A DNA stretch of 38,127 nt from an uncultured Ardenticatenaceae bacterium (GTDB lineage Bacteria; Chloroflexota; Anaerolineae; Promineifilales; Promineifilaceae): assembly GCA_964350725.1 (NCBI GenBank), contig CAYGMR010000003.1:1-38127 (forward strand). The letters are read 5' to 3'. Positions 64 to 36,509 of this stretch are shown piece by piece; within the stretch, counting starts at the first letter, position 1; every line of letters starts with the position of its first letter. The position numbers and the translations under genes were made by a program. The notes under the pieces are model-generated. The model ran no database searches. It saw only the letters and a program-made list of their open reading frames with translations, and was not told the DNA's origin.

Positions 64-1071
64 TTATGGAGTTTGCGATTTGATGGGATTTTGCAGGCCA
101 CGGATTGTGAGGGCGAGGCGTTTTTTACGGCCGTTTACACTCAAAATGCGTGCTGTGACTTCATCGCCTATTTGCACGACATTGCGGGGATGAAAGAAAG
201 AGCCTTCAGCCAGTTCAGAGATGTGGATCAACCCTTCGAGTTCTTCTTCGAGCAGGACAAATGCGCCGTAGTTGACCACATTGCTGACTGTGCCTGTGAC
301 GAGTTGGCCGGGCGTGTAGCGTGCTTCAGCCGTATCCCACGGGTCTTGTTTGAGCCGTTTTAGACTGAGAGCAATACGTTCGTTATTTTTATCGATGCTC
401 AAGACCATGACGCGGGCGCTGTCGCCCGGTTTGAGAATTTCGCTGGGATGGGTGACGCGGCTCCAAGATAATTCGGAGATATGGATCAAACCTTCAACGC
501 CGCCTAAATCCAGAAAGACACCGAATTTGGTTAAATTTGTAACTTCACCTGCAACGACATCGCCTGGCTGCAGGCTTTGTAACAAATCGACGCGTTCATG
601 TGCTTCGACCAGAGCGGCGCGTTCCGATAGGATCAGACGGTTGGTTTGTTGATTGACTTCGATGATTTTGAGCTGCAGGGTTTGATCTTGGCGGTTTGAC
701 AATGCACGCATCCGTTCGCGCGCCATATGAAATTGAGGAAAATCGACAAGCTGCGAGGCGGGGACAAAACCTTGTAAGCCGTTCCATGAAACGAGCAAGC
801 CGCCTTTGTTATAGCCAGTGACTTGTAATTCTAGAATCTTGTCAGATTCTAGATGTTCTTGTGCAGTTTCCCAGATGCTTTGCTTGGAATTTTGTGAGGT
901 TTCTGCGGATGACCAGGTTAAACGGCCGTCACTTTTTTCATCTATTGGCGGCCATTCATCTTCCATTGAAGGTAATGATGATAGTGACTTTTCTTCCTGC
1001 TGGAATAGTGCATCCCAATACCCATCCGAATTATCGGCCGCTTGATTCCTGTTATCCCGTTCCATTTCCAT
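64..1071 (-). CDS. S1 domain RNA-binding protein (ribosomal protein S1-like, three S1 repeats)
   Basis: 335-aa ORF. Three tandem S1/OB repeats are readable in the translation (GYNKGGLLVSWNGLQGFVPASQL; GEVTNLTKFGVFLDLGGVEGLIHISELS; GTVSNVVNYGAFVLLEEELEGLIHISEL), preceded by an acidic N-terminal extension. No clear SD, so the exact start is unverified. Confidence 0.8.
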   Translation of the reverse strand: MEMERDNRNQAADNSDGYWDALFQQEEKSLSSLPSMEDEWPPIDEKSDGRLTWSSAETSQNSKQSIWETAQEHLESDKILELQVTGYNKGGLLVSWNGLQGFVPASQLVDFPQFHMARERMRALSNRQDQTLQLKIIEVNQQTNRLILSERAALVEAHERVDLLQSLQPGDVVAGEVTNLTKFGVFLDLGGVEGLIHISELSWSRVTHPSEILKPGDSARVMVLSIDKNNERIALSLKRLKQDPWDTAEARYTPGQLVTGTVSNVVNYGAFVLLEEELEGLIHISELAEGSFFHPRNVVQIGDEVTARILSVNGRKKRLALTIRGLQNPIKSQTP

Positions 1072-1234
1072 TACCGTTACTCACGTAGGCAAACTTCCTT
1101 CCGATTGCGGGGCCAGTTGGAGGTCTATGCTTTTTAACAATTCCTTAATTTCCTATCTTTCCTATTATAAACAGTGGTTGCGTGGTGTCAAACAATGATA
1201 GTCTGGTACTCTTGTAATCATGGAGAAATGATGG

Positions 1235-2056
1235 ATGATGGATAATTTGCGAGAAACGGCCGTTCAGGCAGCGCTAAAAACAAAATGGATCGGGCAACAT
1301 TATCGTTTTTTTGAAGCGGTAGGCTCGACCAATGATAAACTCAAGCAAGATGTTAAAAGTTTGTTGGCTGAGACATTACCCGCTGGCACGGTTTATCTGA
1401 CAGATTTTCAAGCACAAGGACGCGGTCGTCTGCAACGTCGTTGGGAAGCGCCTGCAGGCACCTCGCTTTTATTGTCACTACTGCTGCGCCCCGACTGGCC
1501 GGCGCAGCAAAGTGCCTGGCTCACTATGCTGGCTGCATTGTCTGTTGCTGAAGCGATTGAAGCCCAGACGAGTTTGCAAGTGAAACTAAAATGGCCGAAT
1601 GATGTGGTTTTGGAGGTGGACGGCCGTTACCATAAACTTTGCGGCATTTTAGCGGAAGGCAATATCACAGCGGAACAACGCCTCGATTATGCCATTGTGG
1701 GCATGGGTATCAACGTCAATATCCCACCTGAAAGTTTACCGGCTGCCGCAACCCCGGCAACGAGTCTATTCGCAGCCACAGGCAAATCGATTTCGCGCTT
1801 GCCACTGCTGGTGACGTTGTTGCAGAGATTGGAGCATTGGGTGGAAACGGCCGTGGAGGGGCAATCCCCCCAACCTGCCTGGAACCAACGCCTGGTCACT
1901 CTGGGACAAATCGTGCATGTCAATCAAATGGGCAAGGGAGAGCCATTGACTGGTGTTGCCGAAGGTACCGATGCCTGGGGACAGCTATTGGTCCGTGACG
2001 CCGCTGGTCAATTACATACAATAGGTGCCGGCGATGTCACCTTGCGTGAATCCTAA
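1235..2056 (+). CDS. birA: Biotin--[acetyl-CoA-carboxylase] ligase (no N-terminal HTH, class I type)
   Basis: GRGRLQRRWEAPAG matches the biotin-protein-ligase GRGRxGRxWxSPxG loop. KWPNDV motif is present. GGAG lies about 9 nt upstream of the ATG. Length is 273 aa. Confidence 0.9.
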   Translation: MMDNLRETAVQAALKTKWIGQHYRFFEAVGSTNDKLKQDVKSLLAETLPAGTVYLTDFQAQGRGRLQRRWEAPAGTSLLLSLLLRPDWPAQQSAWLTMLAALSVAEAIEAQTSLQVKLKWPNDVVLEVDGRYHKLCGILAEGNITAEQRLDYAIVGMGINVNIPPESLPAAATPATSLFAATGKSISRLPLLVTLLQRLEHWVETAVEGQSPQPAWNQRLVTLGQIVHVNQMGKGEPLTGVAEGTDAWGQLLVRDAAGQLHTIGAGDVTLRES

Positions 2057-2082
2057 TCTGGATAAACCAAAAAAGATTCTGA

Positions 2083-2194
2083 CACGAATTACACGGATTT
2101 CACGAATTTAGGCCGTTTTAATTCGTGAAATCCGTGTAATTCGTGGCAAAAATTGACTCCAAGTCAGGTTTTTACAAAAAGTGCCAACATATTG
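2083..2194. repeat. Intergenic foldback repeat, copy A (perfect 26-bp inverted arms made of three CACGRATTW 9-mers)
   Basis: Arm 2083-2108 CACGAATTACACGGATTTCACGAATT is the exact reverse complement of arm 2120-2145. The loop is TAGGCCGTTTT. The tail GCAAAAATTGACTCCAAGTCAGGTTTTTACAAAAAGTGCCAACATA is near-identical to copy B. The element starts 27 nt after the birA stop. Confidence 0.9.
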
Positions 2195-2656
2195 AGTGCA
2201 TTAAATCCCCGTTTTTTTCTAAATCCGTTGTGGTTTTTCATTTTACGCCTTCTTCACCGCTGTTTCACAAGCCGTTTACCCCGCTAAAGCCTTCCACTTG
2301 TTAATATGTACAGCAATGGTAGCTATGGTTCAGCCCCTAATGATTACTTGGGTGCGACCAATGCATGTTGGACCAACCAATGCTTAGACAATAAAAAGTT
2401 GTACAAACAGGATCGCAAGATTTGGTTGGTGCATAGGTGGTTCTGGCAACACACAATTAAGATTTTCGGAGTACCCAATTTTATCTGTTGCGGCAGCGTG
2501 CTTCTGGCGGCGTAGTTGAGTGTTGGTAAACATTCAATGACCAAAAGAAGGGCCAGACTAACTCGTTGAGTGCTGACGAAAATAATTCATGTGACAACGG
2601 TTGGTTGTCACACAGGGCGGAGCGTGCCCGGACACAAACGTAGAAAAAACTTTTTT

Positions 2657-3400
2657 ATGCCTTCAATTATTCGTGGATTGAACCTATATCTTCAACGTCA
2701 AGCATCGAGTTTCGGCCGTTACTGGCTGGAACAAACGGTATTGTTTTTATTTGGCTGGGTGCCGACTTTGGTGGGCATCGGTCTGCGTGGGGTGGTTTAT
2801 CGGTTCATTTTGCAGATGGATGGCTGGGCCGCGATTGAAAAAGGGGTGCGGCTGCGCTTTGCCGACAACATCCATTTGGGCCACGGTGTTTACCTGGATG
2901 AAAAAACCTACTTGCACGCCTGCCCAAATGGCATTGACATCGGCGATGAAACCATCGTGATGCATGGTGCGATTTTGCATGTCTATAATTTTCGCGACTT
3001 ACCAAATGCTGGCATCAAAATCGGCAAAAACAGTCTGATTGGTGAATATTCAATTATTCGCGGTCAGGGCGGGGTTGAGATTGGTGACCGTGTGTTTACA
3101 TCCCCATACACACAAATTATTGCTGTCAATCATGTGTTTGACGATCCAAAACGGCCGTTTACTGAACAAGGTATTACCGCTGAAGGCATCATCATCGAAG
3201 ACGATGTTTGGGTGGGGGCAGGTGCCATCATCACAGACGGCGTGCATGTGGGCAAAGGGGCTGTTATCGCTGCGGGCGCCGTCGTCACCAAAGATGTGCC
3301 AGCCCATACAGTTGTCGGCGGCGTGCCGGCACGGCCCATCAAAAAAATTGATGCCGAGCAGGTTTCATATTTGGATCGTGATATTTATCATTTAGCTTGA
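2657..3400 (+). CDS. Hexapeptide-repeat (LbH) sugar O-acetyltransferase with N-terminal hydrophobic helix
   Basis: C-terminal LbH signature [53 protein letters not shown]. The ORF track opens at a GTG at 2570. The ATG at 2657 (MPSIIRGLN) is the more plausible start. Paralogous to the 23447 gene. Confidence 0.8.
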
Positions 3401-3413: not shown

Positions 3414-3623
3414 AGATTTGTCAAGTTCTTCGACTGTTTATTCACAGCACTACCTTTGCAGTTTTCTTTTATTGCCACGAATTACACGGATTTCACGAAT
3501 TTAGGCCGTTTTAATTCGTGAAATTGGTGAAATTCGTGGCAAAAATTGACTCCAAGTCAGGTTTTTACAAAAAGTGCAAACATAGTGTTCACAGTTCACT
3601 CGTAGTAGAAATTTGACAAATCT
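3414..3623. repeat. Larger foldback unit bounded by inverted 11-mers AGATTTGTCAA / TTGACAAATCT, enclosing copy B
   Basis: AGATTTGTCAA at 3414-3424 and its reverse complement TTGACAAATCT at 3613-3623. The flanks between these ends and the central hairpin are imperfectly inverted (CACTACCTTTGCAG at 3448-3461 versus GTGCAAACATAGTG at 3574-3587). Confidence 0.7.
3476..3587. repeat. Intergenic foldback repeat, copy B
   Basis: About 95% identical to copy A over about 110 bp. The left arm 3476-3501 is identical to A. The right arm has 3 substitutions (AATTCGTGAAATTGGTGAAATTCGTG). Confidence 0.9.
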
Positions 3624-3715: not shown

Positions 3716-4906
3716 ATGACCACCTTATCAGTTGTTATCCCGGCTTATAATGAAGAGTCGGGGATTAAAGAAATCGCCCAACGTGTGTTGGATGTGGGGG
3801 CGGCTTTACAAAAAGTGGGTGTTGGCGGCCTTGAATTATTAGTTGTGGATGATGGCTCACAAGACGAAACGGCCGTTATCGCTGGCAGTATGGCTGGTGT
3901 GAAAGTTATTCAGCATCCAACAAACCAGGGATATGGCGCTGCCTTGAAAACGGGTTTTGGCCAAGCAGGAGGCGAGTTGATTGGCTTTTTAGATGCCGAC
4001 GGCACCTATCCGCCTGAATATTTCCCGCAGCTGTGTACAGAAGCATTGCTCGGTGCAGACCTCGTGATTGGTTCGCGCATGTCGGGTGCCGACAGCCAGA
4101 TGCCAATGACACGCCGTATGGGCAACCTTTTTTTCGCCAATTTGCTCAGTCTGATGGGACGCAAACGCGTTTCTGACAGCGCAAGTGGTATGCGTGTTTT
4201 CAAGCGCGATTTGCTGCATCAGATTTACCCGCTGCCCGATGGCTTGAACCTGACACCAGTCATGAGTACACGCGCTGTACATGAAGAAATCCGTATGGCT
4301 GAGGTGCCGATTCCGTATAGTGAACGCATCGGCCGTTCCAAATTGAGCGTTGTGCATGATGGATCATTGTTCTTGCGTTCGATGGTATGGACAGTGCTGG
4401 AATATAACCCGGTACGCATTTTGGGTTTGCTGGGATTATTGGGCATGGGTTTCGCGGCATTCACATTCCTCGGTTTGTTACTTGCACGTTTGCAAGGTGT
4501 GACCACACTCGAACCCTGGAACATCGCCTTTTTGTTTGCTGGTGCGATGGCTGCGGTGATTGGTATTAGTCTTTTCTCGTTGGGAATTACCTTCAACTAT
4601 CTGGTGTCACTTTTCCATAAACGGCCGATACGCCAAGGTCTATTTGGTCGTCCGCTATTTAAGAAAACGCCATTAGAGAAACAATTTGGCTGGATGGGCG
4701 GTGTGGCGTTGGCAGCTGGGCTTATCATCGGCGCCGTTAGTTTGGTTATGGGTTTGAGCGGCTGGGACATGAACCGTTTATGGCTCTATGGTCTGGTGAG
4801 CGCGATGGCAGTGATGATCGGCGTGCAGTTGATTGTATTTTGGGTATTGCTGCAAGTTCTAAACGAATTGAGTCAGCGGGAATTAGCCGGACAACCGGTC
4901 AGCTAG
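3716..4906 (+). CDS. GT2 polyprenyl-phosphate glycosyltransferase (Dpm1/GtrB/ArnC-like) with C-terminal multi-TM extension
   Basis: VVIPAYNEESGI, LVVDDGSQDET, GYGAALKTG and FLDADGTYPPE motifs are typical of the Dpm1/GtrB clade. About 4 predicted TM helices lie in the last 170 aa. Strong SD. Confidence 0.85.
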   Translation: MTTLSVVIPAYNEESGIKEIAQRVLDVGAALQKVGVGGLELLVVDDGSQDETAVIAGSMAGVKVIQHPTNQGYGAALKTGFGQAGGELIGFLDADGTYPPEYFPQLCTEALLGADLVIGSRMSGADSQMPMTRRMGNLFFANLLSLMGRKRVSDSASGMRVFKRDLLHQIYPLPDGLNLTPVMSTRAVHEEIRMAEVPIPYSERIGRSKLSVVHDGSLFLRSMVWTVLEYNPVRILGLLGLLGMGFAAFTFLGLLLARLQGVTTLEPWNIAFLFAGAMAAVIGISLFSLGITFNYLVSLFHKRPIRQGLFGRPLFKKTPLEKQFGWMGGVALAAGLIIGAVSLVMGLSGWDMNRLWLYGLVSAMAVMIGVQLIVFWVLLQVLNELSQRELAGQPVS

Positions 4907-4957: not shown

Positions 4958-6622
4958 ATGAATGAAAAAATTGAAGACCCGCTGCGTGTTAATTTAGGTA
5001 CGCGTCGTGTGCCCAAGCTGCGCATGGCTAAGTTCCCTGATGCGGATGAGATCGTACGTCAGGGTTTGTTAGATGCGGCACGACCGGAAACGGCCGTTGA
5101 TATTGTCCTTGTCAATCCGCCCACACCTGATGGTGGTTTGTGGATTCGTACCCAACATCGTGTGGGTCGCCGTACGCGTGAAAATATGGTTTGGCCACAA
5201 GTTTCGCTGGCGCAAATGGGTGCACTATTGGCCCCGACCTACAAAATCGCCATCATTGACGCCAATGCCGAGTTTATGGGCTGGCCTGAATTTGCAGATC
5301 TATTGGATAAATACCAACCGAAATATTATTTAACCCAGGTGACAGCACCCACGCTCGAAAATGATATGTATGGCTGTTTTCTGGCTAAAGCCCGTGGTGC
5401 ACAAACGATAGCGTTCGGTACGCATGTGACACCTATTCCACGCGAAACGATGCGGCCGTATCCGGCACTTGATTATATTTTATTGGGCGAACCAGATTTG
5501 ACGATTCGTGATTTGCTCGATCATTTAGAAGGGCGCATTGATGAGCGTCCAGCAAACATCGAAAAATTGTTCTCCGAACATGATCCGCTCTATAAACCAG
5601 CTTTGTTAGAAGATGGTGCTGTTGATATGGGGGGCATCAAGGGTTTGGTTTGGCGTGATAAGGATGAGATTGTGGTGAATTGGCAACGGCCGTTTATCAA
5701 AAATCTCGACGATCTGCCACTGCCGCTGCACCATCTGCTCCCCTGGCAAACACACCGCATGCCCCTCATCAAAGGGCCTTTTACCTTTATTGTTACCAGT
5801 CGTGGCTGTCCCGCCGGCTGCACCTACTGTATCAAACATGTTAGCTACCAATACTCCGTGCGCGTTCGTTCGCCACAAAATATCATGGATGAACTGTGGG
5901 TGCTCAAAAAGCTGGGCATCAACAACATTCACATGTATGCCGATCTGTTCACAGTTAATCGTGAGCAGGTTGTAGGTTTATGCAAATTGATGATCGAACA
6001 AGAGATCAACATGAAATGGACCTGCAACAGTCGTGTAGATTATGTGGACGAGGAGATGCTCAGCTTGATGGGGCAGGCTGGCTGTTGGTTGATCTCCTGG
6101 GGCATTGAAAGTGGCAGCGAAAAGATTTTGCGCCATGCGCGCAAAGGTGCCTATCCCGACAAAGCTGAGCGTGCGCTTGTGTGGGCCCATGCTGCTGGTA
6201 TCAAAAATTGGGGTTACTTTATCATTGGGCTACCCGGTGAAACTGAAGAAACGATTCAACAGACAATTGCTTTTTCAAAACAACTGCCGCTCGACATCGC
6301 GCTATTCCATGTTGCTGCACCTTATCCCGGCACGCCCTTCTTCTTTGAAGTGGTCGAAAACGACTGGTTCCGTGCCGATACACGCTGGGAACAAGTAGAT
6401 ATGGACAAGGGCACTGTGTTGGATTATCCGCAGTTGTCGGCTGAACGTTTGTTGTATTGGCAGAAACGTGCCTTTCGCGAATGGGCGTTACGGCCGGGTC
6501 CCGCATTAACCTATTTGAAGATGCTGCTTTCAGATCGATCTACATTGCGCACAGCATTAAGTGTCGGCTGGCAGCATCTGAGTTGGACATCAACGGAGAC
6601 CGGCTTACCGGTTTCCTCATGA
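4958..6622 (+). CDS. B12-binding-domain radical SAM enzyme (class B rSAM, putative methyltransferase-type)
   Basis: CxxxCxxC cluster in IVTSRGCPAGCTYCIK. The N-terminal region DIVLVNPPTP...AIIDANAE is typical of the cobalamin-binding Rossmann-like domain fused to rSAM cores. Length is 554 aa. Confidence 0.85.
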   Translation: MNEKIEDPLRVNLGTRRVPKLRMAKFPDADEIVRQGLLDAARPETAVDIVLVNPPTPDGGLWIRTQHRVGRRTRENMVWPQVSLAQMGALLAPTYKIAIIDANAEFMGWPEFADLLDKYQPKYYLTQVTAPTLENDMYGCFLAKARGAQTIAFGTHVTPIPRETMRPYPALDYILLGEPDLTIRDLLDHLEGRIDERPANIEKLFSEHDPLYKPALLEDGAVDMGGIKGLVWRDKDEIVVNWQRPFIKNLDDLPLPLHHLLPWQTHRMPLIKGPFTFIVTSRGCPAGCTYCIKHVSYQYSVRVRSPQNIMDELWVLKKLGINNIHMYADLFTVNREQVVGLCKLMIEQEINMKWTCNSRVDYVDEEMLSLMGQAGCWLISWGIESGSEKILRHARKGAYPDKAERALVWAHAAGIKNWGYFIIGLPGETEETIQQTIAFSKQLPLDIALFHVAAPYPGTPFFFEVVENDWFRADTRWEQVDMDKGTVLDYPQLSAERLLYWQKRAFREWALRPGPALTYLKMLLSDRSTLRTALSVGWQHLSWTSTETGLPVSS

Positions 6623-9412: not shown

Positions 9413-9420
9413 TCAGTCTT

Positions 9421-11256: not shown

Positions 11257-11266
11257 CTCACTCACA

Positions 11267-12163: not shown

Positions 12164-12164
12164 T

Positions 12165-22473: not shown

Positions 22474-22478
22474 TCAAT

Positions 22479-23444: not shown

Positions 23445-23446
23445 AT

Positions 23447-24055: not shown

Positions 24056-24059
24056 TCCC

Positions 24060-25256: not shown

Positions 25257-25374
25257 GTTCCCGTTATTTTTTCGCAAAATTTACACACTTTGAGAGTGCT
25301 CTGTTGCATCCTTTAAGTAATTCCAAAATGACTATGGATGCTGCCGATTCCTTAAGAAAAACGCGCATACCCAC

Positions 25375-25436
25375 GCTCTGGCCGGTCTCCTGACCGTGTC
25401 CACTGGCTCGGTCAGGAGACCGGCCAGAGCTTGTTT
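25375..25436 (+). terminator. 22-bp perfect GC-rich hairpin, candidate intrinsic terminator of the 3716-25256 operon
   Basis: GCTCTGGCCGGTCTCCTGACCG at 25375-25396 pairs perfectly with CGGTCAGGAGACCGGCCAGAGC at 25409-25430. The loop is 12 nt and is followed by TTGTTT. It lies 119 nt after the GT4 stop. Confidence 0.6.
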
Positions 25437-28219: not shown

Positions 28220-29146
28220 ATGAAACCTGAACTGCAACGCCTCTCAATCATTATCGTCAATTGGAATACGCGCCAACTGCTGGCTGAATGTTTGGCGTCG
28301 CTGCAACAAAACATCAATGCGGCGACAGATTTTGAGGTTGAAACGATTGTGGTTGATAACGCCTCTTCCGATGATAGTGTGGCCATGGTGCAGCGTGATT
28401 TCCCTTGGGTGAAACTAATCTGCAACGCTGAAAATCGTGGCTTTGCTGTGGCTAATAATCAGGCAATCCAACAAGCGTCGGGCGCAGCTATTTTGTTGTT
28501 AAACAGCGACACCCATGTGCATTTGGGTGCTTTGCAAGAAATGTTTGCCTTTATGCGCAAAAATCCGCGTATTGGTGCGCTGGGCGCACGTTTACTCAAT
28601 GCCGATGGCAGCCTGCAACCATCTTGTCAGCCGATGTTGACGCCCGGACGTGAGTTTTGGCGTTTGAGTTTTTTGGATCAGCTCATGCCGCGTGCGACTT
28701 ATAACATGTATACGTGGGACACGGCCGTTCCCCGGCAAGTTGAAGTGATTAAAGGTGCCTGTCTATTATTACGCCGTCAAGCGTTAGACGAAATCGGACT
28801 GCTCGATGACCGTTATTTTATGTACACCGAAGAAGTAGACCTTTGTTACCGTTTGGCCCAAGCTGGGTGGCAGCTTTGGTATCTGCCGACGGCCGTTGTT
28901 ACCCATTATGGCGAACGCAGCAGCCGCCAAGAAGCGGAAACGATGTATGTGCAGCTTTACCGCAGCAAGGTGCAGTTTTATCGGAAATTTGGCGGCGAAC
29001 GACGTGCACGCACATTTAAGGAATTGATATGCGTAGCCTATGTGCCGCGCTGGATTATGGCGCATTTGCAAGCGTTATTCTTTGCGCAGTGGAAACCACG
29101 CGCCCGTTTATATCGACGTTTATTAGCGGAACTGCCAGGGATGTAA
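28220..29146 (+). CDS. GT2 family glycosyltransferase (paralog of the 22479 gene)
   Basis: [40 protein letters not shown] and [10 protein letters not shown] motifs. Confidence 0.85.
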
Positions 29147-29148
29147 TT

Positions 29149-30285
29149 ATGCGCATCGCTTACATTTTACTTTCGCCTACCTTTGGTATGCATCAATATA
29201 CGGCCGATTACGCCAACCGTTTTGCATTAGCGGGTCACGCTGTGCATCTGATAACCACAAGCCATTTACCACGCGATCGTTATGCAACGGCCGTTGCCAT
29301 CCATACACCCATCGCCACCACAAACACAGGCATCTCTACTGAACTGTTCCAGTGGCGCAGCATTAAAAAAGTAGTTGATGTTGTTGAGCAAATCCAACCT
29401 GATGTGATCCATTTCACCGGCCCACACCTTTGGAATGTGCCGCTTTTGCGCCAGCTAAAAAAATATCAGATACCCGTCATTCATACTATCCATGACCTCG
29501 ATCCGCACAGCGGCACACGCATGGGGCAGCTGCTTAAATATTGGAACCAGCGCATTATTCAAACGGCCAATCACATTCTTGTACATGGGCATCAATACCG
29601 TCAGCGTTTACTGGCTCAGGGTGTTGCGGCTGAAGAAGTGACTTATGCCCCCTTATTGCATCTGTTTCTTAGCCATGCAGCGGCAGTTTCATTCGCAAGC
29701 CAGCACATACCGGCTACCTATGAACCCTTTGCCCTCTTTTTTGGTCGGGTTGAAAAATATAAGGGGATCGATGATTTATTGGCAGCCTACACGCAGCTGC
29801 AAGCGAGCCAGGAATCAAAATCACGATTAAAGCTCGTCTTGGCTGGCCCTGGTCGTTTGTCCGCCAAATGGCAGACCCAACTACCCGCTGGCGTTACCCA
29901 TATAAACCAACGTATTGATGATGCTGAGGCACTCGATTTGTTTTGTCGTTGTAGTTTAGTGCTGCTGCCCTACACAGATGCCACACAATCTGCCTTGGTT
30001 GCCGCTGCCTATTATTTCCAAAAGCCGGTGATGGTTACACGCTCGGGTGCGTTGCCAGAATATGTGGACGCAGGCGAAACTGGTTTTGTTGTGCCCCCAC
30101 GTCAAGCAACGCAGATCGCACGGGTGTTGCAAATCGCAGGCGATTATCCGCAACAATTAGGCACGATGGGACGCAACGGCCGTCGGTGGTATGACACACA
30201 ACGTTTGCATGAATTTGCCGCTTTAACCGGAATGTATCGGAAGTTGATAAATATTGATCAAAAAAATGTAAAAGTAGTCGTTTAG
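29149..30285 (+). CDS. GT4 (GT-B fold) glycosyltransferase
   Basis: MRIAYILLSPTFGMHQY start at the ATG at 29149, 2 nt after the upstream stop. The track ORF from 29029 overlaps the GT2. FFGRVEKYKGIDDLL...LLPYTDATQSALVAAAYYFQKPVMVTRSGALPEYVDAGETGFVV. Confidence 0.8.
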   Translation: MRIAYILLSPTFGMHQYTADYANRFALAGHAVHLITTSHLPRDRYATAVAIHTPIATTNTGISTELFQWRSIKKVVDVVEQIQPDVIHFTGPHLWNVPLLRQLKKYQIPVIHTIHDLDPHSGTRMGQLLKYWNQRIIQTANHILVHGHQYRQRLLAQGVAAEEVTYAPLLHLFLSHAAAVSFASQHIPATYEPFALFFGRVEKYKGIDDLLAAYTQLQASQESKSRLKLVLAGPGRLSAKWQTQLPAGVTHINQRIDDAEALDLFCRCSLVLLPYTDATQSALVAAAYYFQKPVMVTRSGALPEYVDAGETGFVVPPRQATQIARVLQIAGDYPQQLGTMGRNGRRWYDTQRLHEFAALTGMYRKLINIDQKNVKVVV

Positions 30286-30293: not shown

Positions 30294-30414
30294 CACTATG
30301 TTTGCACATTTCGCATAAGTGTAATTTTCAGCCACAAATTAATACAGATTATAAATTAAATTCGTGAAAATCTGTGTTAATCCGTGGCAAAAAGAAAAAA
30401 CTGCAAAGATAGTG
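30294..30414. repeat. Intergenic foldback repeat, copy C (diverged)
   Basis: Ends CACTATGTTTGCAC (30294-30307) and CTGCAAAGATAGTG (30401-30414) are inverted. Inner arms GCCACAAATTAATACAGATT (30331-30350) and AATCTGTGTTAATCCGTGGC (30369-30388) have 3 transition mismatches. The reverse complement of the right half aligns at about 85% with the left half of copy B. Confidence 0.7.
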
Positions 30415-30449
30415 TTTATCGGTAATGTACTGTATTGGAGCTCTTAACC

Positions 30450-31943
30450 ATGACATCATATGACAAAAGCCAGGAAAACCTGGAACTCGCCGCGCAAGAA
30501 TGGGCGTTTCGCCGGGTTTGGTTACCTTCATTAGGATTACGCAGTTCCGAGCGTCGTCTGTTGTTAGGAATTGTTGATCTAATCCTGATCAATCTCGCAC
30601 TGATCTTTTCTCTGCTCATTAGCACCGATTTATTGCCATCGTTTTCTGCAATATTGGGGCCGTTCAAATGGTTTGTGACCTTAACGGCCGTATGGCTTTT
30701 TGTAGCCAATATTTTTGATGTGTATAACCTGGCGCGTGCCGCGTCGACAACCTACAGCGTGCGTACCATTGGCACAGTGGCGTTAATCACCAGCATCGTC
30801 TACACAGCCATACCCTGGTTGACACCGCCCATGCAAAACCGCTCCCAGCTTTTCCTCTTTGTATTCTTCGCCATATTTATGCTCGTGGCTTGGCGGGTTT
30901 TGTATGCCCAATTTTTTGTTCAACCGACCTTCCAACGCCGTTCCATCATCATCGGCACTGGGGCAAGCGGTCAAGCATTGGTCACAACCTTGCAAAAGAA
31001 ATTGCTCGGTGTCGATGCCAATCCGTTCCGAGGCACAGGTTACGAAATCCTTGGTTTCATTGAAGATAATGCTACCAACCAGGAAGAGAGAGTCGCGGGA
31101 TTGCCCGTGTTGGGTTCAAGCCAGGATGTGGTCAGCGTCGTTGATAAATTGCATATTGATGAGGTCATTATTGCCATGCCAAATACCCAACACATGGGGC
31201 CGACTTTGTTTGAGGCCATCTTGGATTGTCGCGAATTAGGTGTGCCTGTCACTAAAATGACCACAGTCTACGAACGTTTGACCAGTCGTGTGCCTGTCGA
31301 ATATGCCAGCGATGATATGGAAATCGCGGCGGGTCTAGATGACAATCCTTTTTTGCGTTTGTACACCGCCATCAAACGCCTCACAGATTTAATTGGCGCT
31401 GTTTTGACCTTGCCCTTTTTTCTTTTATTAATGCCACTTGTAGCACTGGGTAATTTGTTCTCTTCACCTGGCCCACTGTTTTTCAAACAGGTGCGTGTCG
31501 GTCGGGGCGGACGGCCGTTTCATATCCTCAAATTCCGTTCAATGGTGCCCGACGCTGAAAAAAGCCAGGGAGCAACCTGGGCACAATCCAACGATGATCG
31601 TGTCACTACGATTGGACGCATATTGCGCTGGTCACATCTGGATGAACTACCCCAAATCATTAATGTGCTGCATGGCGAGATGAGCTTGGTAGGCCCGCGT
31701 CCTGAACGACCAGAATTTGTTGAAAAACTAGCCCCACGTATTCCTTTTTATCGGGCGCGGCATTGTGCCAAACCTGGCATTACCGGTTGGGCCCAAATCC
31801 ATCAGGATTATGGCGACTCAATCGCAAGTGCTCAGGAAAAATTGGAATATGACCTTTACTATGTAAAACATATTAGCCCGATCCTGGATTTGCTAATTAT
31901 GTTGCGTACGATTACGAAAGTGGTCGGATTACGGGGTCGCTAA
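30450..31943 (+). CDS. Polyprenyl-phosphate sugar phosphotransferase (WbaP/EpsL-type initiating enzyme, Bac_transf domain)
   Basis: KRLTDLIGAVLTLPFFLLLMPLVALG...PGPLFFKQVRVGRGGRPFHILKFRSM and DELPQIINVLHGEMSLVGPRPERPEF are hallmark motifs. There are N-terminal TM helices plus a Rossmann-like domain. ATG at 30450; the track uses a TTG at 30435. Confidence 0.9.
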   Translation: MTSYDKSQENLELAAQEWAFRRVWLPSLGLRSSERRLLLGIVDLILINLALIFSLLISTDLLPSFSAILGPFKWFVTLTAVWLFVANIFDVYNLARAASTTYSVRTIGTVALITSIVYTAIPWLTPPMQNRSQLFLFVFFAIFMLVAWRVLYAQFFVQPTFQRRSIIIGTGASGQALVTTLQKKLLGVDANPFRGTGYEILGFIEDNATNQEERVAGLPVLGSSQDVVSVVDKLHIDEVIIAMPNTQHMGPTLFEAILDCRELGVPVTKMTTVYERLTSRVPVEYASDDMEIAAGLDDNPFLRLYTAIKRLTDLIGAVLTLPFFLLLMPLVALGNLFSSPGPLFFKQVRVGRGGRPFHILKFRSMVPDAEKSQGATWAQSNDDRVTTIGRILRWSHLDELPQIINVLHGEMSLVGPRPERPEFVEKLAPRIPFYRARHCAKPGITGWAQIHQDYGDSIASAQEKLEYDLYYVKHISPILDLLIMLRTITKVVGLRGR

Positions 31944-31948
31944 CGGCT

Positions 31949-33226
31949 ATGAATGTTCTTTTCCTGACCCAGCTTTTGCCATATCCATTAGTCGGTGGCC
32001 AAAAGATTCGTGCATACTATATGTTACGGCAATTGGCTCTAAACCATGATGTCACGCTGGTTTCCTTCACACGGGAGGATGATCGCCCAGAAGATATTGA
32101 ACATTTACGCGGATTGTGTGCGGCCGTTTACACCGTTCCCATGCAGCGTTCCCTGTTCAAAAACATCCAAGCCGTAGTAGAAAGCGTGTTGAAAGGCAAA
32201 TCAATCGTCATCACCCGGGACCGGCTGCCCGCGATGCACACTTGTTTGCAAAAATTGGTGTCAGAAACTGAGTTTGATGTCATCCACGCCGATCAAACTG
32301 CCATGGCCCAATATGCGCTTTTTGCACAAGATACGGCCGTAAACAATCCCCGCACAGTATTAGACCAACATAACGCGCTGTATCTGGTCGTTGCGCGTCA
32401 GGCAGACCATGCACGCGGCCGTTTGCAACGTCTATTATGGCGCTGGGAAGCAAAACGTTTGGTTGCTTATGAGGCGGATGTTTGCCGCCGCTTTGACCAT
32501 GTGATAACTGTTACGCAGGAAGATAAAGAAGCCTTACTGCGCCTTTATCCAGCAGCAGAAGCCGCGCATCTTGCTAGACGCTTCACCCCACTGCCCATCT
32601 GCGTCGATCCGGATGAACAGCCCATATTGCCAAGAGAAAGCGGAGCGGATAAGCAAATCATATTTCTGGGAACGATGTTTTGGCCGCCCAATGTAGAAGG
32701 GGCGCGTTGGTTTGCTGAGGAAGTATTGCCACTTGTTTTGCAACGCGTTCCGCAATCAAACTTCAAGATTGTGGGCAAAAACCCGCCTGCGTCGATCGTG
32801 AATTTACAAGCTGCAACAGCGCCGTATGCTGAGCATATTGAGATCACAGGCTTTGTGGCCGATGTTGAACCCATATTGGCAAGCAGTTGTGTGTTTGTTG
32901 TGCCTTTATTAGCTGGCGGCGGAATGCGCGTGAAAATTTTAGATGCATGGCAATGGGGGCTGCCGGTGGTTTCCACCACGATTGGCGCAGAAGGTATTTT
33001 AACGCAGCATGGCGAAAACATCCTGTTAGCGGATGATGCCGACGCTTTTGCTGACGCGGTGGTTGATGTTTTGGTTGATGCTGAATTGGCCTATGATCTG
33101 AGGGTCAACGGCCGTTCCTGGGTCGTGCAAAACTACAACTGGCACACGGTTTATCCACAACTTGATGCAATCTACACACAACTCAATTTGAGTGCGTACA
33201 ACAAAATTCACGAAGATTTGATGTAA
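31949..33226 (+). CDS. GT4 (GT-B fold) glycosyltransferase
   Basis: MNVLFLTQLLPYPLVGGQKIRAYYML N-terminus. LLAGGGMRVKILDAWQWGLPVVSTTIGAEG C-terminal nucleotide-sugar-binding region. Paralog of the 24060 gene. Confidence 0.85.
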   Translation: MNVLFLTQLLPYPLVGGQKIRAYYMLRQLALNHDVTLVSFTREDDRPEDIEHLRGLCAAVYTVPMQRSLFKNIQAVVESVLKGKSIVITRDRLPAMHTCLQKLVSETEFDVIHADQTAMAQYALFAQDTAVNNPRTVLDQHNALYLVVARQADHARGRLQRLLWRWEAKRLVAYEADVCRRFDHVITVTQEDKEALLRLYPAAEAAHLARRFTPLPICVDPDEQPILPRESGADKQIIFLGTMFWPPNVEGARWFAEEVLPLVLQRVPQSNFKIVGKNPPASIVNLQAATAPYAEHIEITGFVADVEPILASSCVFVVPLLAGGGMRVKILDAWQWGLPVVSTTIGAEGILTQHGENILLADDADAFADAVVDVLVDAELAYDLRVNGRSWVVQNYNWHTVYPQLDAIYTQLNLSAYNKIHEDLM

Positions 33227-33368: not shown

Positions 33369-33397
33369 AATTAGCTAAACAGGCTTAAGGAAAAACT

Positions 33398-35065
33398 ATG
33401 GAGATAAAGCAGTATATCATCCCTCTACGCAAATGGTGGTGGCTCATTATAGCTGCCGCGTTGGTTGCCTCAGTATCCAGTTACTTGATGGTTCAACGCC
33501 AGCCGCCACTTTATCAGACGAGAACCGCACTGGTTATGGGGCAAGCGATAAACGATCCAAATCCAAATGGATCGGGTATCTATTTTATTTCTACCCTGCT
33601 GGGAACCTATGCAGATATTGCTAATCGTGAACCGGTCAAGCAAGCGACGATGGACGCATTGGGTTTGACCTGGCTGCCTGAATATGAAGTAAAAGTTTTA
33701 TCGAATACGCCCTTGCTGGAAATAAGTGTTGTCGATACCAACCCAGAACGCGCAACGGCCGTTGCCAACGAATTAGCCAACCAGCTAGTCTTAGCCAGCC
33801 CTGCCAGCACCGAACAAGATGAATACGAACGGCAAGCGTTTATCAACCAACAGCTCGATAATTTGGAAGTTCAAATCCAAGAAACGACGGACGAATTGGA
33901 GATCAAACAGGCCGAATTGGGTGAACTGTTTAGCGCCCGCCAAATCGCTGACATGCAAACGGACATCGACGCCCTAGACGGCAAACTCAATACGCTGCAA
34001 AACAATTATGCGGTGTTGCTCTCAAATACAAATGAGGGTGCATTAAACAGCCTGAGCGTCATCGAACCAGCCGCATTACCCCAAAAACCAATTAATTCTA
34101 ACAAAATCATGACCATTGTTGCCGCCGGTATCATTGGCATCATTTTAGCCATATCTGCAGCGTACTTGTTGGAATATCTCGATAACTCGATCAAAACTCC
34201 TGAAGACATCAGCCGCGAATTGAATTTGCCCGTCATTGGCTACATTGGCGATATTCCATCAGCCGAGGAGCGCGGTTTAGTGGTTGTGGATTCACCACGC
34301 GCCCCCATCGCTGAGGCTTTTCGTTCGTTACGTACCAACTTGGAGTTTGCCGGCGTTGACAAACCGCTCAAGACAATTTTGGTTACAAGCCCCGGCCCTG
34401 GCGAAGGCAAAACGACCGTCTCAACAAATTTAGCCGCTGTTATCTCACAGGGGAATAAACGGGTTGCTTTGATCGATGCCGACCTGCGCCGGCCGAGCAT
34501 CCATAAACGCTTGGGCATATCAAACCGACGCGGACTGAGCGATATTTTCCGTGGCCAGTTAGATATCCGTGATGTGATACGGCCGTGGCGTAATAGTTTT
34601 GCTGTCATCACGAGCGGCAGTTTGCCACCCAATCCAGCCGAGTTGTTGGGCTCCGCCAAAATGAGCGAAATGCTTTCTGAACTAGAGAAGTTTACCGATA
34701 TGGTTGTATTGGACAGCCCGCCATTTTTGGTGACAGATGCCCCTGTATTAGCTGCAAAGGCGGATGGTGTGATTTTAGTCATTCGTCCTGGACGCACACC
34801 GGTGGACGCAGCTAAAGCGATGATGGAGCAGTTAGATCGTGTTGGGGCGCGTGTGGTTGGTGTTGTGCTCAATCGCGTGCCGCGCAGTGGCTCTTACTAT
34901 TATAGTTATAAATATTACTCCCCTTATTATGGACATGATGACAGTTCAAACAGCGGGGCAATACAAGATGATGAGCAACCTCACGCTGAACCGGGCGTAA
35001 GTCGCCTGGGGGCACTTTTTGGCCGCTCAAATCGGTCTGCTGTGAGTGTGATTGATGAAAGCTGA
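33398..35065 (+). CDS. Fused polysaccharide co-polymerase (Wzz domain) / bacterial tyrosine kinase (Wzc/EpsB-like)
   Basis: N-terminal TM, then a coiled extracytoplasmic domain, then a second TM. Walker A SPGPGEGKTT, Walker A' LIDADLRRPS and Walker B MVVLDSPP. C-terminal tyrosine cluster SGSYYYSYKYYSPYYG. Confidence 0.9.
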   Translation: MEIKQYIIPLRKWWWLIIAAALVASVSSYLMVQRQPPLYQTRTALVMGQAINDPNPNGSGIYFISTLLGTYADIANREPVKQATMDALGLTWLPEYEVKVLSNTPLLEISVVDTNPERATAVANELANQLVLASPASTEQDEYERQAFINQQLDNLEVQIQETTDELEIKQAELGELFSARQIADMQTDIDALDGKLNTLQNNYAVLLSNTNEGALNSLSVIEPAALPQKPINSNKIMTIVAAGIIGIILAISAAYLLEYLDNSIKTPEDISRELNLPVIGYIGDIPSAEERGLVVVDSPRAPIAEAFRSLRTNLEFAGVDKPLKTILVTSPGPGEGKTTVSTNLAAVISQGNKRVALIDADLRRPSIHKRLGISNRRGLSDIFRGQLDIRDVIRPWRNSFAVITSGSLPPNPAELLGSAKMSEMLSELEKFTDMVVLDSPPFLVTDAPVLAAKADGVILVIRPGRTPVDAAKAMMEQLDRVGARVVGVVLNRVPRSGSYYYSYKYYSPYYGHDDSSNSGAIQDDEQPHAEPGVSRLGALFGRSNRSAVSVIDES

Positions 35066-35093
35066 TTGTTTTTGGCTGTTGGACGAACTACAT

Positions 35094-35156: not shown

Positions 35157-35163
35157 CCACGTT

Positions 35164-35192
35164 GCCCTTGTATCCAACAAGGGCTTTTTTTT
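35164..35192 (+). terminator. Rho-independent terminator
   Basis: GCCCTTGT at 35164-35171 pairs with ACAAGGGC at 35177-35184. The loop is 5 nt and is followed by 8 T (35185-35192). It lies about 100 nt after the BY-kinase stop. Confidence 0.85.
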
Positions 35193-35198
35193 GTCCAA

Positions 35199-35240
35199 AT
35201 TACGAGGATTTACGCTTTTTTCACGAGAGCTTTACGAATT
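35199..35240. repeat. Degenerate remnant of the CACGRATT repeat family
   Basis: AATTACGAGGATTTACGC...TCACGAGAGCTTTACGAATT resembles AATTACACGGATTTCACGAATT. No clean hairpin. Confidence 0.35.
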
Positions 35241-35438
35241 ATGCATTGGAAAGGGATGGAAAAGCTTCTATGCTTAGTACTTGAGTAACGAATGTGGGGT
35301 GGACGATTAAATAATAGACGGAAATTCAGCGTCAGCCCTGGGGAATGGTAAGGAAACAACTTCGCGTTCTTATTAAAATTCTGTTCCCACGGCAGCTTAT
35401 TGGTAGTATGTAATATAAAAATTTAACGGAAGTAAAAC

Positions 35439-36509
35439 ATGGCTCTCCCTGAAGAACTAATTCCAGTAAATCGAAATGATTCTAATATCCCCGTGGTTTG
35501 CCCTTATTTGGGCACAATGCCGGATCCCCATACATCAGTTGCTTACCCATCCGGTGCTAATTTTTGTCACCGGACGGATAATCCTCAGTTAGTTAGCCCT
35601 GCCCATCAGGGTCAAGTTTGTCTACTTGAAGCGTATGATAATTGCGCTACCTATCGCGATGCTCTTATTCCTGTTAAAAGTATTGATGTGGGAGGGCCGG
35701 TCAAAAAGAAATCGAATTGGAAACGGCCGTTAGCCATTGTTGCCGTTATCTTGCTCTTTGGTGTGGTTTTGTTTGGTGCCTACGCCATGTTTTCCCCTTT
35801 CAGCACTGAACCCGTAGATGCGTCAGCACCATCCATCCAAGATTCAGAAGAAACGGCATTAGCCAGCATAAGTGTACCGACGCCAACCTTGATAGCTGTT
35901 TCAACAGAAGATGTGTCAGGAGAAGATGTGTCAGAAGTCATTGACGTAGATGCCATCACAACTGATGCTGCCCAGACAGACACAATCGCCGAAGAGGCTG
36001 AGGAAATTGAAGCCCCACCTACCGCTGCAGAAAACGAAAATGAGATAGATGCGTCTTCTGAAGAAGCGAAAAAGGCACCTATTTCCCAGACCCCAGCTCC
36101 CACAGCAATTCCTGATTTGAAAGAAGATACAGCATTTTTTGATTTCGATGATATCGACGCCTTCGATTCAGCCGATGAATTTGCAAGTGCGACCGAGCCT
36201 TCGTCTATTGCTGAGGAAACCGCTGCGGAAACTGTTGAACCGACTCCCGCTGCTAATACGGATATTGCTGATGGAACGGCCGTAATCCGCACAGGTGCAT
36301 TAAATGTCCGCAGCGGCCCTGGCCCACAATTCCCTTCAATTGCGCTTGCCTACAATGGCCAACACGTCATTTTATTAGGTCGCAATGGTGATAATTCCTG
36401 GGTAAAAGTTCGCCTCCTCAACGGCCCTGTCGGTTGGATTTATGCCGCGCATATCGAACCAGGCCAACCCCTGGACGAAATCCCCTTCATCCCCCGCGCA
36501 CAACGATAA
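35439..36509 (+). CDS. Single-pass membrane protein: N-terminal Cys-containing cytoplasmic module, acidic low-complexity linker, C-terminal bacterial SH3 (SH3b) domain
   Basis: N-terminus VVCPYLG...ANFCHR...QVCLLEAYDNCATY. TM LAIVAVILLFGVVLFGAYAMF. Acidic linker rich in E, D, A and T. C-terminus GTAVIRTGALNVRSGPGPQFPSIALAYNGQHVILLGRNGDNSWVKVRLLNGPVGWIYAAHI is an SH3_3-type pattern. GGAAG SD. Confidence 0.7.
   Translation: MALPEELIPVNRNDSNIPVVCPYLGTMPDPHTSVAYPSGANFCHRTDNPQLVSPAHQGQVCLLEAYDNCATYRDALIPVKSIDVGGPVKKKSNWKRPLAIVAVILLFGVVLFGAYAMFSPFSTEPVDASAPSIQDSEETALASISVPTPTLIAVSTEDVSGEDVSEVIDVDAITTDAAQTDTIAEEAEEIEAPPTAAENENEIDASSEEAKKAPISQTPAPTAIPDLKEDTAFFDFDDIDAFDSADEFASATEPSSIAEETAAETVEPTPAANTDIADGTAVIRTGALNVRSGPGPQFPSIALAYNGQHVILLGRNGDNSWVKVRLLNGPVGWIYAAHIEPGQPLDEIPFIPRAQR

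Follow-up and report, generated by a model that had tools for sequence, protein, structure and literature searches.

The closest described counterpart of the DNA word considered here is HIP1 (GCGATCGC), a highly iterated palindrome (HIP) of cyanobacteria. HIP1 sites are methylated by DmtC and DmtA, and transformation and integration are up to 100-fold higher with methylated HIP1 sites. The function of HIP1 is debated, and the proposals include methyl-directed repair, nucleoid structure, and the uptake or recombination of incoming DNA. Alternate HIPs are also known, all of them cyanobacterial, namely GGGATCCC, TCGATCGA, CAGGCCTG, GGCGCC, rCCGGy and GCsGC, and most of these occur in one or few genomes. 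Operational HIP criteria are taken from Elhai 2015 and Xu et al. 2018, with hyper-abundance set at an observed/expected ratio above ~15 and roughly 0.4–2.5 copies per kb. The present analysis concerns positions 1 to 38,127 of contig CAYGMR010000003.1, a stretch termed the window throughout, and the word ACGGCCGT, which like HIP1 is a perfect 8-bp palindrome of 75% GC. ACGGCCGT is a DNA-level word; neither a peptide nor codon usage nor a mobile repeat accounts for it, and it is very probably a HIP-type, actively maintained DNA signal.

Recounting by computation gives exactly 54 exact copies of ACGGCCGT in the 38,127 bases, a density of 1.42 per kb or one per ~700 bases in genes. In 100 dinucleotide-preserving shuffles of the window the mean is 0.49 copies and the maximum 3, an order-3 Markov model of the window predicts 1.8, and the observed/expected ratio by base composition is 109. 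ACGGCCGT and words overlapping it head the window's lists of 8-, 10- and 12-mers. The decamer AACGGCCGTT accounts for 24 of the 54 copies, A...T flanks are found on 54 of the 75 CGGCCG hexamers (72%), and the HIP1 octamer is absent (0 copies). The original prediction, made by eye, had reported 54 octamers, about 24 decamers, ~72% of CGGCCG with A...T flanks, a ~90-fold excess over chance and no enrichment of HIP1; the counts, the flanked share and the lack of HIP1 enrichment are reproduced by the recount. Its list of start positions is confirmed apart from 11 of the 54 entries, which are 10 too high and should read 3869, 8919, 9573, 9799, 12457, 13354, 14547, 15202, 20624, 23500 and 36276. This offset looks like a line-counting slip, and the last site really ends at 36283 rather than at 36293. 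The maximal-order Markov comparison that had been proposed as a check cannot discriminate on the window, where it expects 52.9 copies against 54 seen, because every 6- and 7-mer sub-word comes from the motif itself. A more telling control shuffles synonymous codons and leaves every protein sequence unchanged. In 1000 such shuffles ACGGCCGT occurs 3.1 times on average and at most 11 times, and codon-order shuffles leave 0.7 copies.

All 54 sites lie inside coding sequences, with at least one site in 24 of the 28 complete genes. They are read in three frames, 29 as ACG-GCC-GTn (Thr-Ala-Val, TAV), 12 as nAC-GGC-CGT (x-Gly-Arg) and 13 as nnA-CGG-CCG-Tnn (x-Arg-Pro-x), which is exactly the split and the all-coding placement first claimed. 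After an S1-domain protein and BirA, the window encodes a polysaccharide-biosynthesis cluster whose products are glycosyltransferases (GT2 and GT4), Wzy-like and BNR proteins, a priming transferase, DegT and an ABC-2/Wzt exporter; an ABC-F gene lies at the window's 3′ end. The sites are listed below with frame and host gene. Each is ACGGCCGT, a palindrome and hence without strand, and L-numbers denote loci of relatives introduced further on.

127-134, x-Gly-Arg (nAC-GGC-CGT), S1 gene 64-1071 (-), same site in L001, L009 and L010
922-929, x-Gly-Arg, S1 gene 64-1071 (-), same site in 6/9 lineages
1256-1263, Thr-Ala-Val, BirA 1235-2056 (+), aligned to L001
1620-1627, x-Gly-Arg, BirA 1235-2056 (+), aligned to L001
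1847-1854, Thr-Ala-Val, BirA 1235-2056 (+), aligned to L001
3151-3158, x-Arg-Pro-x, hexapeptide acyltransferase 2570-3400 (+), aligned to L001
3869-3876, Thr-Ala-Val, GT2 3716-4906 (+), ACGGCCGC in L001
5090-5097, Thr-Ala-Val, radical SAM 4958-6622 (+), aligned to L001
5686-5693, x-Arg-Pro-x, radical SAM 4958-6622 (+), GCGGCCGT in L001
6967-6974, x-Arg-Pro-x, BNR protein 6650-9412 (+), aligned to L001
7202-7209, Thr-Ala-Val, BNR protein 6650-9412 (+), absent in L001
8919-8926, x-Gly-Arg, BNR protein 6650-9412 (+)
9023-9030, Thr-Ala-Val, BNR protein 6650-9412 (+)
9573-9580, x-Arg-Pro-x, Wzy_C/TPR protein 9421-11256 (+)
9799-9806, Thr-Ala-Val, Wzy_C/TPR protein 9421-11256 (+)
10264-10271, Thr-Ala-Val, Wzy_C/TPR protein 9421-11256 (+)
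10761-10768, x-Arg-Pro-x, Wzy_C/TPR protein 9421-11256 (+)
11078-11085, x-Gly-Arg, Wzy_C/TPR protein 9421-11256 (+)
11327-11334, Thr-Ala-Val, ABC-2 permease 11141-12163 (+)
12457-12464, x-Gly-Arg, ABC ATPase 12147-13436 (+)
13354-13361, x-Gly-Arg, ABC ATPase 12147-13436 (+)
14547-14554, x-Arg-Pro-x, DegT aminotransferase 14095-15312 (+)
14642-14649, x-Gly-Arg, DegT aminotransferase 14095-15312 (+)
15202-15209, Thr-Ala-Val, DegT aminotransferase 14095-15312 (+)
16651-16658, Thr-Ala-Val, BNR protein 16456-17910 (+)
17312-17319, x-Gly-Arg, BNR protein 16456-17910 (+)
17725-17732, Thr-Ala-Val, BNR protein 16456-17910 (+), unit 1 of a 30-nt tandem duplication
17755-17762, Thr-Ala-Val, BNR protein 16456-17910 (+), unit 2 of the 30-nt tandem duplication
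18431-18438, Thr-Ala-Val, GT4 17900-19231 (+)
18974-18981, Thr-Ala-Val, GT4 17900-19231 (+)
20624-20631, x-Arg-Pro-x, GT4 20430-21671 (+)
20838-20845, Thr-Ala-Val, GT4 20430-21671 (+)
21176-21183, x-Arg-Pro-x, GT4 20430-21671 (+)
21486-21493, Thr-Ala-Val, GT4 20430-21671 (+)
21615-21622, Thr-Ala-Val, GT4 20430-21671 (+)
22566-22573, Thr-Ala-Val, GT2 22470-23444 (+)
23500-23507, x-Arg-Pro-x, hexapeptide acyltransferase 23423-24055 (+)
23733-23740, x-Gly-Arg, hexapeptide acyltransferase 23423-24055 (+)
24189-24196, Thr-Ala-Val, GT4 23949-25256 (+)
26222-26229, Thr-Ala-Val, Wzy_C membrane protein 25481-26887 (+)
27280-27287, Thr-Ala-Val, unknown protein 26884-28188 (+)
27405-27412, x-Arg-Pro-x, unknown protein 26884-28188 (+)
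28721-28728, Thr-Ala-Val, GT2 28220-29146 (+)
28889-28896, Thr-Ala-Val, GT2 28220-29146 (+)
29287-29294, Thr-Ala-Val, GT4 29029-30285 (+)
30176-30183, x-Gly-Arg, GT4 29029-30285 (+)
30684-30691, Thr-Ala-Val, priming sugar transferase 30435-31943 (+)
31511-31518, x-Arg-Pro-x, priming sugar transferase 30435-31943 (+)
32333-32340, Thr-Ala-Val, GT4 31949-33226 (+)
33108-33115, x-Gly-Arg, GT4 31949-33226 (+)
33755-33762, Thr-Ala-Val, GNVR/ParA-like kinase 33398-35065 (+)
34579-34586, x-Arg-Pro-x, GNVR/ParA-like kinase 33398-35065 (+)
35723-35730, x-Arg-Pro-x, SH3_3 protein 35439-36509 (+)
36276-36283, Thr-Ala-Val, SH3_3 protein 35439-36509 (+)

The duplication at 17706-17765 consists of two 30-nt units of 80% identity that encode EATAVPT twice, with one ACGGCCGT per unit, and the pair at 17725 and 17755 contains the only window sites less than 95 nt apart.

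The imprint on the proteins is strong. The window has 30 Thr-Ala-Val tripeptides, and 29 of them are spelled ACGGCCGT where codon usage (ACG for 26% of Thr, GCC for 29% of Ala) predicts ~8%. The motif likewise encodes 12 of the 14 [NDYH]-Gly-Arg and 13 of the 21 Arg-Pro-[FLSYCW] tripeptides. TAV is also the commonest tripeptide of the window, with 30 occurrences against 5 expected from amino-acid frequencies (6-fold). Together, this saturation and the TAV excess indicate a force that saturates the synonymous opportunities and also makes sites by amino-acid changes. The conserved ABC-F ATPase open reading frame (ORF; 36734-38127, open at the 3′ end of the window, 464 codons or 1.4 kb) has 0 copies of ACGGCCGT and no TAV, NGR or RP opportunities; near-sites occur in it as TCGGCCGC at 36972 and ACGGCCGA at 37031.

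Outside genes the window has 0 copies of ACGGCCGT in 2.4 kb against 3.3 expected (P = 0.03), which is a fluctuation. In relatives, 174 of 186 sites are coding and 12 lie in 14.7 kb of non-coding DNA, where a uniform distribution would place 19, so that the word is hugely enriched outside genes too and slightly depleted there relative to coding DNA. These non-coding sites bear on the view that there is no DNA signal at all and that ACGGCCGT is a by-product of codons, dinucleotides or peptides, a small mobile repeat or an assembly artefact. Such a view could appeal to the 29 of 54 sites in frame 0 (Thr-Ala-Val) and to the coding position of every window site. It is refuted by the shuffles, the frame analysis and the recurrence of the same enrichment in independent assemblies, and its probability is vanishingly small. 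A peptide motif is ruled out by the use of three frames together with the 12 non-coding sites of relatives, and a by-product of composition, dinucleotides or codon usage by shuffles that yield only 0.5–3 copies; the same three observations bear out the original claim that the word is imposed at the DNA level and is not a peptide motif. Similarity between copies ends within ~14 nt, and the alignments contain no indels. A dispersed repeat or miniature inverted-repeat transposable element (MITE) is rejected, as repeat families share the motif and a few flanking bases only (at most ~14 nt). Units of the REP, BIME or MITE type, which are extragenic, at least 20 nt long and inserted, are rejected too, the sites being intragenic in unrelated genes and free of indels. 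A structured RNA or tRNA was also considered and discarded, with no Rfam or ARAGORN matches.

The flanks of the 54 window sites are symmetric. A at -1 and T at +1 are each found at 36 sites, G at -3 at 34 and C at +3 at 25, which gives the weak extended consensus GnAACGGCCGTTnC. Among the one-base variants of the window, 18 of 23 differ at positions 1 or 8, with ACGGCCGA present in 8 copies, GCGGCCGT in 6 and TCGGCCGT in 3, and each inner variant has 0–2 copies against ~0.5–1 expected (few counts in 38 kb). CGGCCG lacking both the A and T flanks occurs only 3 times and is not enriched, and GGCC outside the motif occurs 119 times against 128 expected, again no enrichment; the recognised unit is therefore at least the octamer. 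As a separate observation on other short words, CCWGG is found 95 times in the window against 66 expected and CCSGG 41 times against 62, with the same direction in L009 and L010.

The sites are also spaced more regularly than chance would have it. In the window the gaps have a coefficient of variation of 0.68 (P ~0.002), and 6 of 7 chromosomal loci show such regularity. For 226 pooled gaps the coefficient is 0.72 (Kolmogorov–Smirnov test against an exponential, P = 3e-4), 4% of gaps fall below 0.15 of the mean (14% expected) and 0.9% exceed 3 times the mean (5% expected), and the typical spacing is ~0.6–1 kb. Even spacing at ~1 per kb is what would also be seen if ACGGCCGT were a methylation-independent, protein-read 'self' tag, that is, an uptake word resembling the DNA uptake sequence (DUS) or uptake signal sequence (USS), a Chi-like word by which DNA ends are shielded from, or primed for, recombination, or a word read by FtsK/TraB-type DNA translocases of conjugative elements. 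The USS in Haemophilus likewise occurs at ~1 per kb with even spacing. However, DUS, USS, Chi, KOPS and TraB TRS words are all non-palindromic and several are directional, and ACGGCCGT, unlike USS and DUS, shows no build-up in intergenic terminators (12 non-coding sites among 186, where 19 are expected). A recent proposal sees HIP1 itself as an uptake or Chi-like sequence, which is a point for the tag. On balance a tag of this kind is unlikely, and further evidence on it comes from lineage-specific flanks and from phages, described below.

The nearest genomes by S1 protein are 'Anaerolineales bacterium HKST-UBA48' (89% identity) and an uncultured Chloroflexia metagenome-assembled genome (MAG; 72%), and an identical S1 protein is encoded on a contig of GCA_030428505.1. 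Judged by this protein similarity, the organism is an Anaerolineae-type member of the Chloroflexota and not a cyanobacterium; a cyanobacterial origin is ruled out in that the nearest genomes are Chloroflexota MAGs. Relatives were sampled as 18–21 kb loci around S1 homologues of decreasing identity, and all densities outside the window come from loci of 4–21 kb. Thirteen loci share a short S1 and BirA-S1-FtsK synteny, and they represent 12 distinct lineages (the S1 protein of L006 is also that of L007). In 12 of these loci ACGGCCGT outnumbers every other 8-mer; in the remaining one, L107, it is the top palindromic 8-mer, and CG-rich triplet repeats are more frequent. Related chromosomal loci carry 0.38–1.62 sites per kb across 48–64% GC, with observed/expected ratios of 22–92 in the eight relatives computed (L106-L108 lie outside this set). 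Densities by lineage are as follows.

L001, L002, L006/L007 and L008, nearest relatives, 1.05-1.62 sites per kb
L009, Ardenticatenaceae, 1.57 sites per kb
L010, Promineifilaceae, 1.62 sites per kb
L106, 1.0 site per kb
L108, 0.67 sites per kb
L011, L012 and L107, 0.38-0.43 sites per kb

The more distant outgroup loci L003, L004 and L105, the last with a 555-aa S1, contain 0 copies of ACGGCCGT, and a metagenome scan by S1 protein returned two distant loci only, both without the motif. The proportion of TAV tripeptides that are motif-coded follows the same gradation, with 90–100% in high-density lineages, ~85–90% in L106 and L108, 40–67% in low-density lineages and 0% in the outgroups. The enrichment recurs in independent NCBI, ENA and JGI assemblies, on short and long contigs. 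ACGGCCGT belongs to the Anaerolineae-type Chloroflexota clade with BirA-S1-FtsK synteny, of which Ardenticatenaceae and Promineifilaceae are members. The bases added in the decamer vary: most lineages have AACGGCCGTT, and the one with 64% GC (L006 and L007) has CACGGCCGTG. One core across families with such dialect-like flanks is a further feature that a 'self' tag would share. In L006 and L007, CACGGCCG and CGGCCGTG match the octamer itself in frequency. In L011 (contig_32533, ERZ25039600) many genes, the MR_MLE, proton antiporter and molybdopterin oxidoreductase genes among them, are fragmented, and they are intact in the sister locus L012; this suggests frameshift errors of a long-read assembly, and the low motif count of L011 is to be read accordingly.

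Comparison with orthologs reveals how sites come and go. An alignment of the window with L001 covers 7.4 kb (80% nucleotide identity), and all 11 window sites in it are gap-free; 8 are identical in L001 and 10 keep CGGCCG, against 24% identity for all aligned 8-mers. Two sites found in one genome only differ at 5 of 8 bases, and gained and lost sites are substitutions. The ortholog comparison that the original prediction had called for therefore shows ACGGCCGT sites arising by point substitution, aligned without gaps. Across nine loci, binned by amino-acid identity (>=85%, 70–85%, 55–70% and <55%), motif 8-mers are conserved at 90, 65, 36 and 26% and other 8-mers at 30, 13, 6 and 4%; where the spanning amino acids are identical, the figures for the same bins are 96, 85, 78 and 88% for the motif and 38, 26, 17 and 26% for other 8-mers, statistics that pool non-independent lineage pairs and contain some shadow ORFs. 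At orthologous places without the motif, 12 of 16 one-base variants differ at positions 1 or 8, and most such places differ at 3–6 of 8 bases. C-to-T changes at lost sites are spread over C2, C5 and C6.

These patterns can be set against a purely neutral mutational drive, in which a bias of very-short-patch (VSP) type or methyl-directed mismatch repair acting on CGGCCG converts near-sites, and the word itself is functionless. A persistent drive predicts the almost full use of synonymous opportunities, and a saturating one would also explain site conservation. The presence of the motif on all replicon types, the prevalence of one-base variants at the outer positions, which is the pattern behind Elhai's ratchet model, and the quantitative variation of density and saturation by lineage, as if the strength of a process varied, fit it as well. 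However, a drive that acts on sequence opportunities is not expected to produce even spacing with a deficit of both short and long gaps. Many sites needed amino-acid changes, with a TAV excess that is 6-fold in the window and 9–10-fold in phages, and homologous non-motif places mostly differ at 3–6 of 8 bases, so most gains did not come from near-sites. Phages and transferable elements equal or exceed the chromosomal density. Finally, known VSP effects such as that of Dcm/Vsr in E. coli change word frequency by less than ~2-fold, not 100-fold. A neutral drive is considered an improbable account of the word.

The mobile fraction was sampled by scanning IMG/VR for AACGGCCGTT within 31 nt of ACGGCCGT, which gave 92 loci. 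In 36 of them (at least 4 kb and at least 6 sites) the top 8-mer is ACGGCCGT or an overlapping word, at 0.9–4 per kb raw. When every site within 50 nt of another is dropped as an ascertainment correction, the median is 1.66 per kb (interquartile range 1.4–2.0, maximum 2.8), compared to 1.23 in pooled chromosomal loci. L081, L032/L095 and L103 encode a terminase large subunit together with portal or head proteins and are therefore tailed phages. L079, L015 and L094 (IMG/VR contigs 3300048592_001391, 3300033417_000002 and a third) encode FtsK/SpoIIIE-like proteins, transglycosylase, ParA and helicase; no capsid or terminase is found in the stretches seen, though they are catalogued as viral, and they look like conjugative or plasmid-like elements. 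These three have the highest motif densities found, 3.4–4 per kb. TAV is motif-coded in 40 of 41 and 46 of 49 cases in the phage and element groups and occurs at 9–10 times expectation. The L081 terminase clusters at 90% identity with 'terminase [Anaerolineae bacterium]' and with a fragment from Ca. Promineifilaceae, which ties at least this phage to the same clade; for most IMG/VR contigs the host is presumptive. ACGGCCGT is maintained on every kind of replicon in the Chloroflexota clade. For the 'self' tag these data cut both ways. The top densities sit on elements that encode FtsK/SpoIIIE-like proteins, transglycosylase and ParA, as a translocase-related word might, yet tailed phages inject their own DNA and would gain nothing from an uptake tag, and they carry the motif.

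The original prediction described ACGGCCGT as a HIP-like palindrome that is neither a peptide motif nor HIP1, and this description stands; the link that it suggested to a CGGCCG or GGCC methyltransferase or to very-short-patch repair is putative. Every HIP feature that could be run was found, that is, a GC-rich palindrome, hyper-abundance, placement in three frames and, in relatives, in non-coding DNA, spread by substitution, conservation of sites, and variants at positions 1 and 8. The reading preferred here combines a HIP-type maintained signal with methylation-dependent kin-marking, and its overall probability is put at about 50%. The kin-marking component by itself, drawn by analogy with HIP1, is possible but on the doubtful side. 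A lineage-conserved protein would read the palindrome, presumably as a dimer and as a word of at least eight bases, and the best guess by the HIP1 analogy is a solitary DNA methyltransferase centred on CGGCCG. The mark would label DNA as 'kin', which would be favoured in repair, recombination or the establishment of incoming DNA. Substitutions that create sites would then have a better chance of fixation, and selection for having each ~1-kb stretch covered would keep the sites in place. Selection for coverage is preferred over a purely neutral repair bias because of the even spacing, the amino-acid cost and the equal or higher load on moving DNA. In its widest form the proposal makes ACGGCCGT an independently evolved, clade-wide 'kin-DNA watermark', for which a reader system selects and which the phages and conjugative elements of the clade either imitate or are forced to bear; this is offered tentatively, at somewhat less than even odds.

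Several observations weigh against kin-marking by methylation or limit its reach. Methyltransferase signatures (regular expressions and Pfam) are absent from the window and the first 12 loci fetched, and methyltransferases are absent from the Pfam annotation of later chromosomal loci, ~0.3 Mb of chromosomal sequence in all; no Vsr- or MutH-like nuclease or other reader was found in the window and these related loci either. A methylase that simply targets CGGCCG or GGCC does not by itself account for the 8-mer, and the C-to-T decay spectrum singles out no one cytosine. The excess conservation of sites could come from saturating mutational drive and not from selection. The IMG/VR densities are biased upward by the paired-site scan and are corrected solely by dropping paired sites. 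One phage enzyme that might have served is also excluded. It lies at 9018-9839 of phage locus L096, is an SPPY methyltransferase of the cytosine-N4 type that resembles solved cytosine-N4 methyltransferases, and belongs to a very conserved family that adjoins an MvaI/BcnI-family nuclease in an unrelated, motif-free genome. It is most likely a CCWGG/CCSGG enzyme, and its MvaI/BcnI-type family rules it out as the HIP methylase. The L081 phage locus encodes a Dam-like D12 enzyme and an SPPY N6/N4 methyltransferase (72-995 and 9698-10996).

Some further features of the window concern the cluster itself. Positions 1-2194 match L005 (GCA_030428505.1, JAUIDT010000529.1) at 99.6% identity up to the first intergenic repeat, after which different genes follow, and the polysaccharide cluster appears to vary between strains with the intergenic repeat at the junction. 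This repeat of ~115 nt has two direct copies (2077-2194 and 3448-3587, 95% identity), each with an internal hairpin whose 32-nt arms consist of CACGAATT-like sub-repeats, and partial inverted copies lie near 30.3 kb (30294-30414). The full copies flank the acyltransferase gene 2570-3400, and no copy of the repeat contains ACGGCCGT. Elsewhere, in the gap between a gene that ends at 25256 and the next, which starts at 25481, a near-perfect hairpin at 25372-25433 (arms of 25 nt with 96% complementarity, loop of 12 nt) looks like a terminator.

In the literature examined, HIPs have been analysed only in cyanobacteria, and ACGGCCGT breaks this single-phylum picture. It is a natural replicate, in that a general explanation of HIPs must fit two phyla with unrelated words, and it offers an independent system for finding what HIP-type repeats do. 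Graded density, motif-free outgroups and public long-read data for several MAGs mean that a reader or methylase can be sought by phylogenetic correlation and modification calling. That phages and transferable elements carry the word so densely suggests a role in DNA acceptance or processing rather than in gene expression. In practice, the word is a strong marker by which Anaerolineae-type contigs can be binned and phages and plasmids matched to these hosts, and it may also bear on how readily these filament formers of wastewater can be manipulated genetically. If the watermark reading is true, ACGGCCGT would be a second, phylogenetically independent HIP system, in which densities of 0, 0.4, 1.0 and 1.6 per kb allow the machinery to be found by comparative genomics, and that machinery could settle the 30-year-old question of HIP purpose.

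Compared with the known systems, ACGGCCGT is closest to HIP1. Both are 8-bp palindromes of 75% GC at ~1 per kb with observed/expected ratios of tens to hundreds, and both are found in each of the three frames as well as outside genes and spread without indels by substitution. For the two alike, sites are conserved between genomes more often than control octamers are, one-base variants fall mostly at positions 1 and 8 (for HIP1, Elhai 2015), the palindrome extends weakly beyond the octamer, and occurrence is lineage-wide with quantitative variation and losses. In contrast to HIP1, ACGGCCGT is found in Chloroflexota, is unrelated in sequence and has no GATC or CGATCG core, so that it falls outside HIP1 proper on both sequence and taxon. 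HIP1 has the cognate methyltransferases DmtA and DmtC, whereas no counterpart was found for ACGGCCGT in the sequence covered; conversely, high density on phages and conjugative-type elements is shown for ACGGCCGT, and the HIP1 papers examined contain no such report. The alternate cyanobacterial HIPs demonstrate that other GC-rich palindromes can fill the HIP role in a lineage. One of them, CAGGCCTG of Synechococcus PCC 6312, has a GGCC centre like ACGGCCGT, although its density is just 0.37 per kb and its observed/expected ratio ~15, compared to 1.0–1.6 per kb and 47–109 in several families for ACGGCCGT.

The word ACGGCCGT is absent from the text of Elhai 2015 and from the other HIP literature examined, in agreement with the original prediction, which had not recognised it as a described HIP, and a full-text search for it gave only primer and antibody sequences among the top matches. 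It thus appears to be an undescribed HIP counterpart in a second phylum, with an unrelated word and an extension to the mobilome, 'undescribed' being provisional on this limited search of the literature.

Resemblances extend to uptake words. The DUS of Neisseria and the USS of Pasteurellaceae occur evenly at ~1 per kb, lie inside genes in several frames at peptide cost, are common to a family-level clade, have flank 'dialects' and are found on resident mobile DNA. ACGGCCGT is like them in its density of ~1 per kb, its even spacing (pooled coefficient 0.72) and its flank dialects, and also in its intragenic placement in several frames at peptide cost, its clade-wide occurrence and its presence on mobile DNA. 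DUS and USS are, however, non-palindromic, often form terminator pairs and are tied to a known competence apparatus, whereas ACGGCCGT is palindromic with 174 of 186 sites coding. Polar words of the Chi/KOPS type are asymmetric, whereas ACGGCCGT is a perfect palindrome with symmetric flanks. Dcm/Vsr, which acts on CCWGG in E. coli, illustrates a route by which a methylase and repair lead to over-representation of a palindrome, the one proposed in the original prediction, although its known effect is below ~2-fold against ~100-fold for ACGGCCGT. Such a bias predicts, next to a Vsr gene, that deamination (C-to-T) variants of the site are depleted, and with 0–2 copies of each inner variant the counts in 38 kb are too small to resolve this. 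Restriction-modification targets, finally, are avoided in host and phage, whereas ACGGCCGT is enriched ~100-fold in both.

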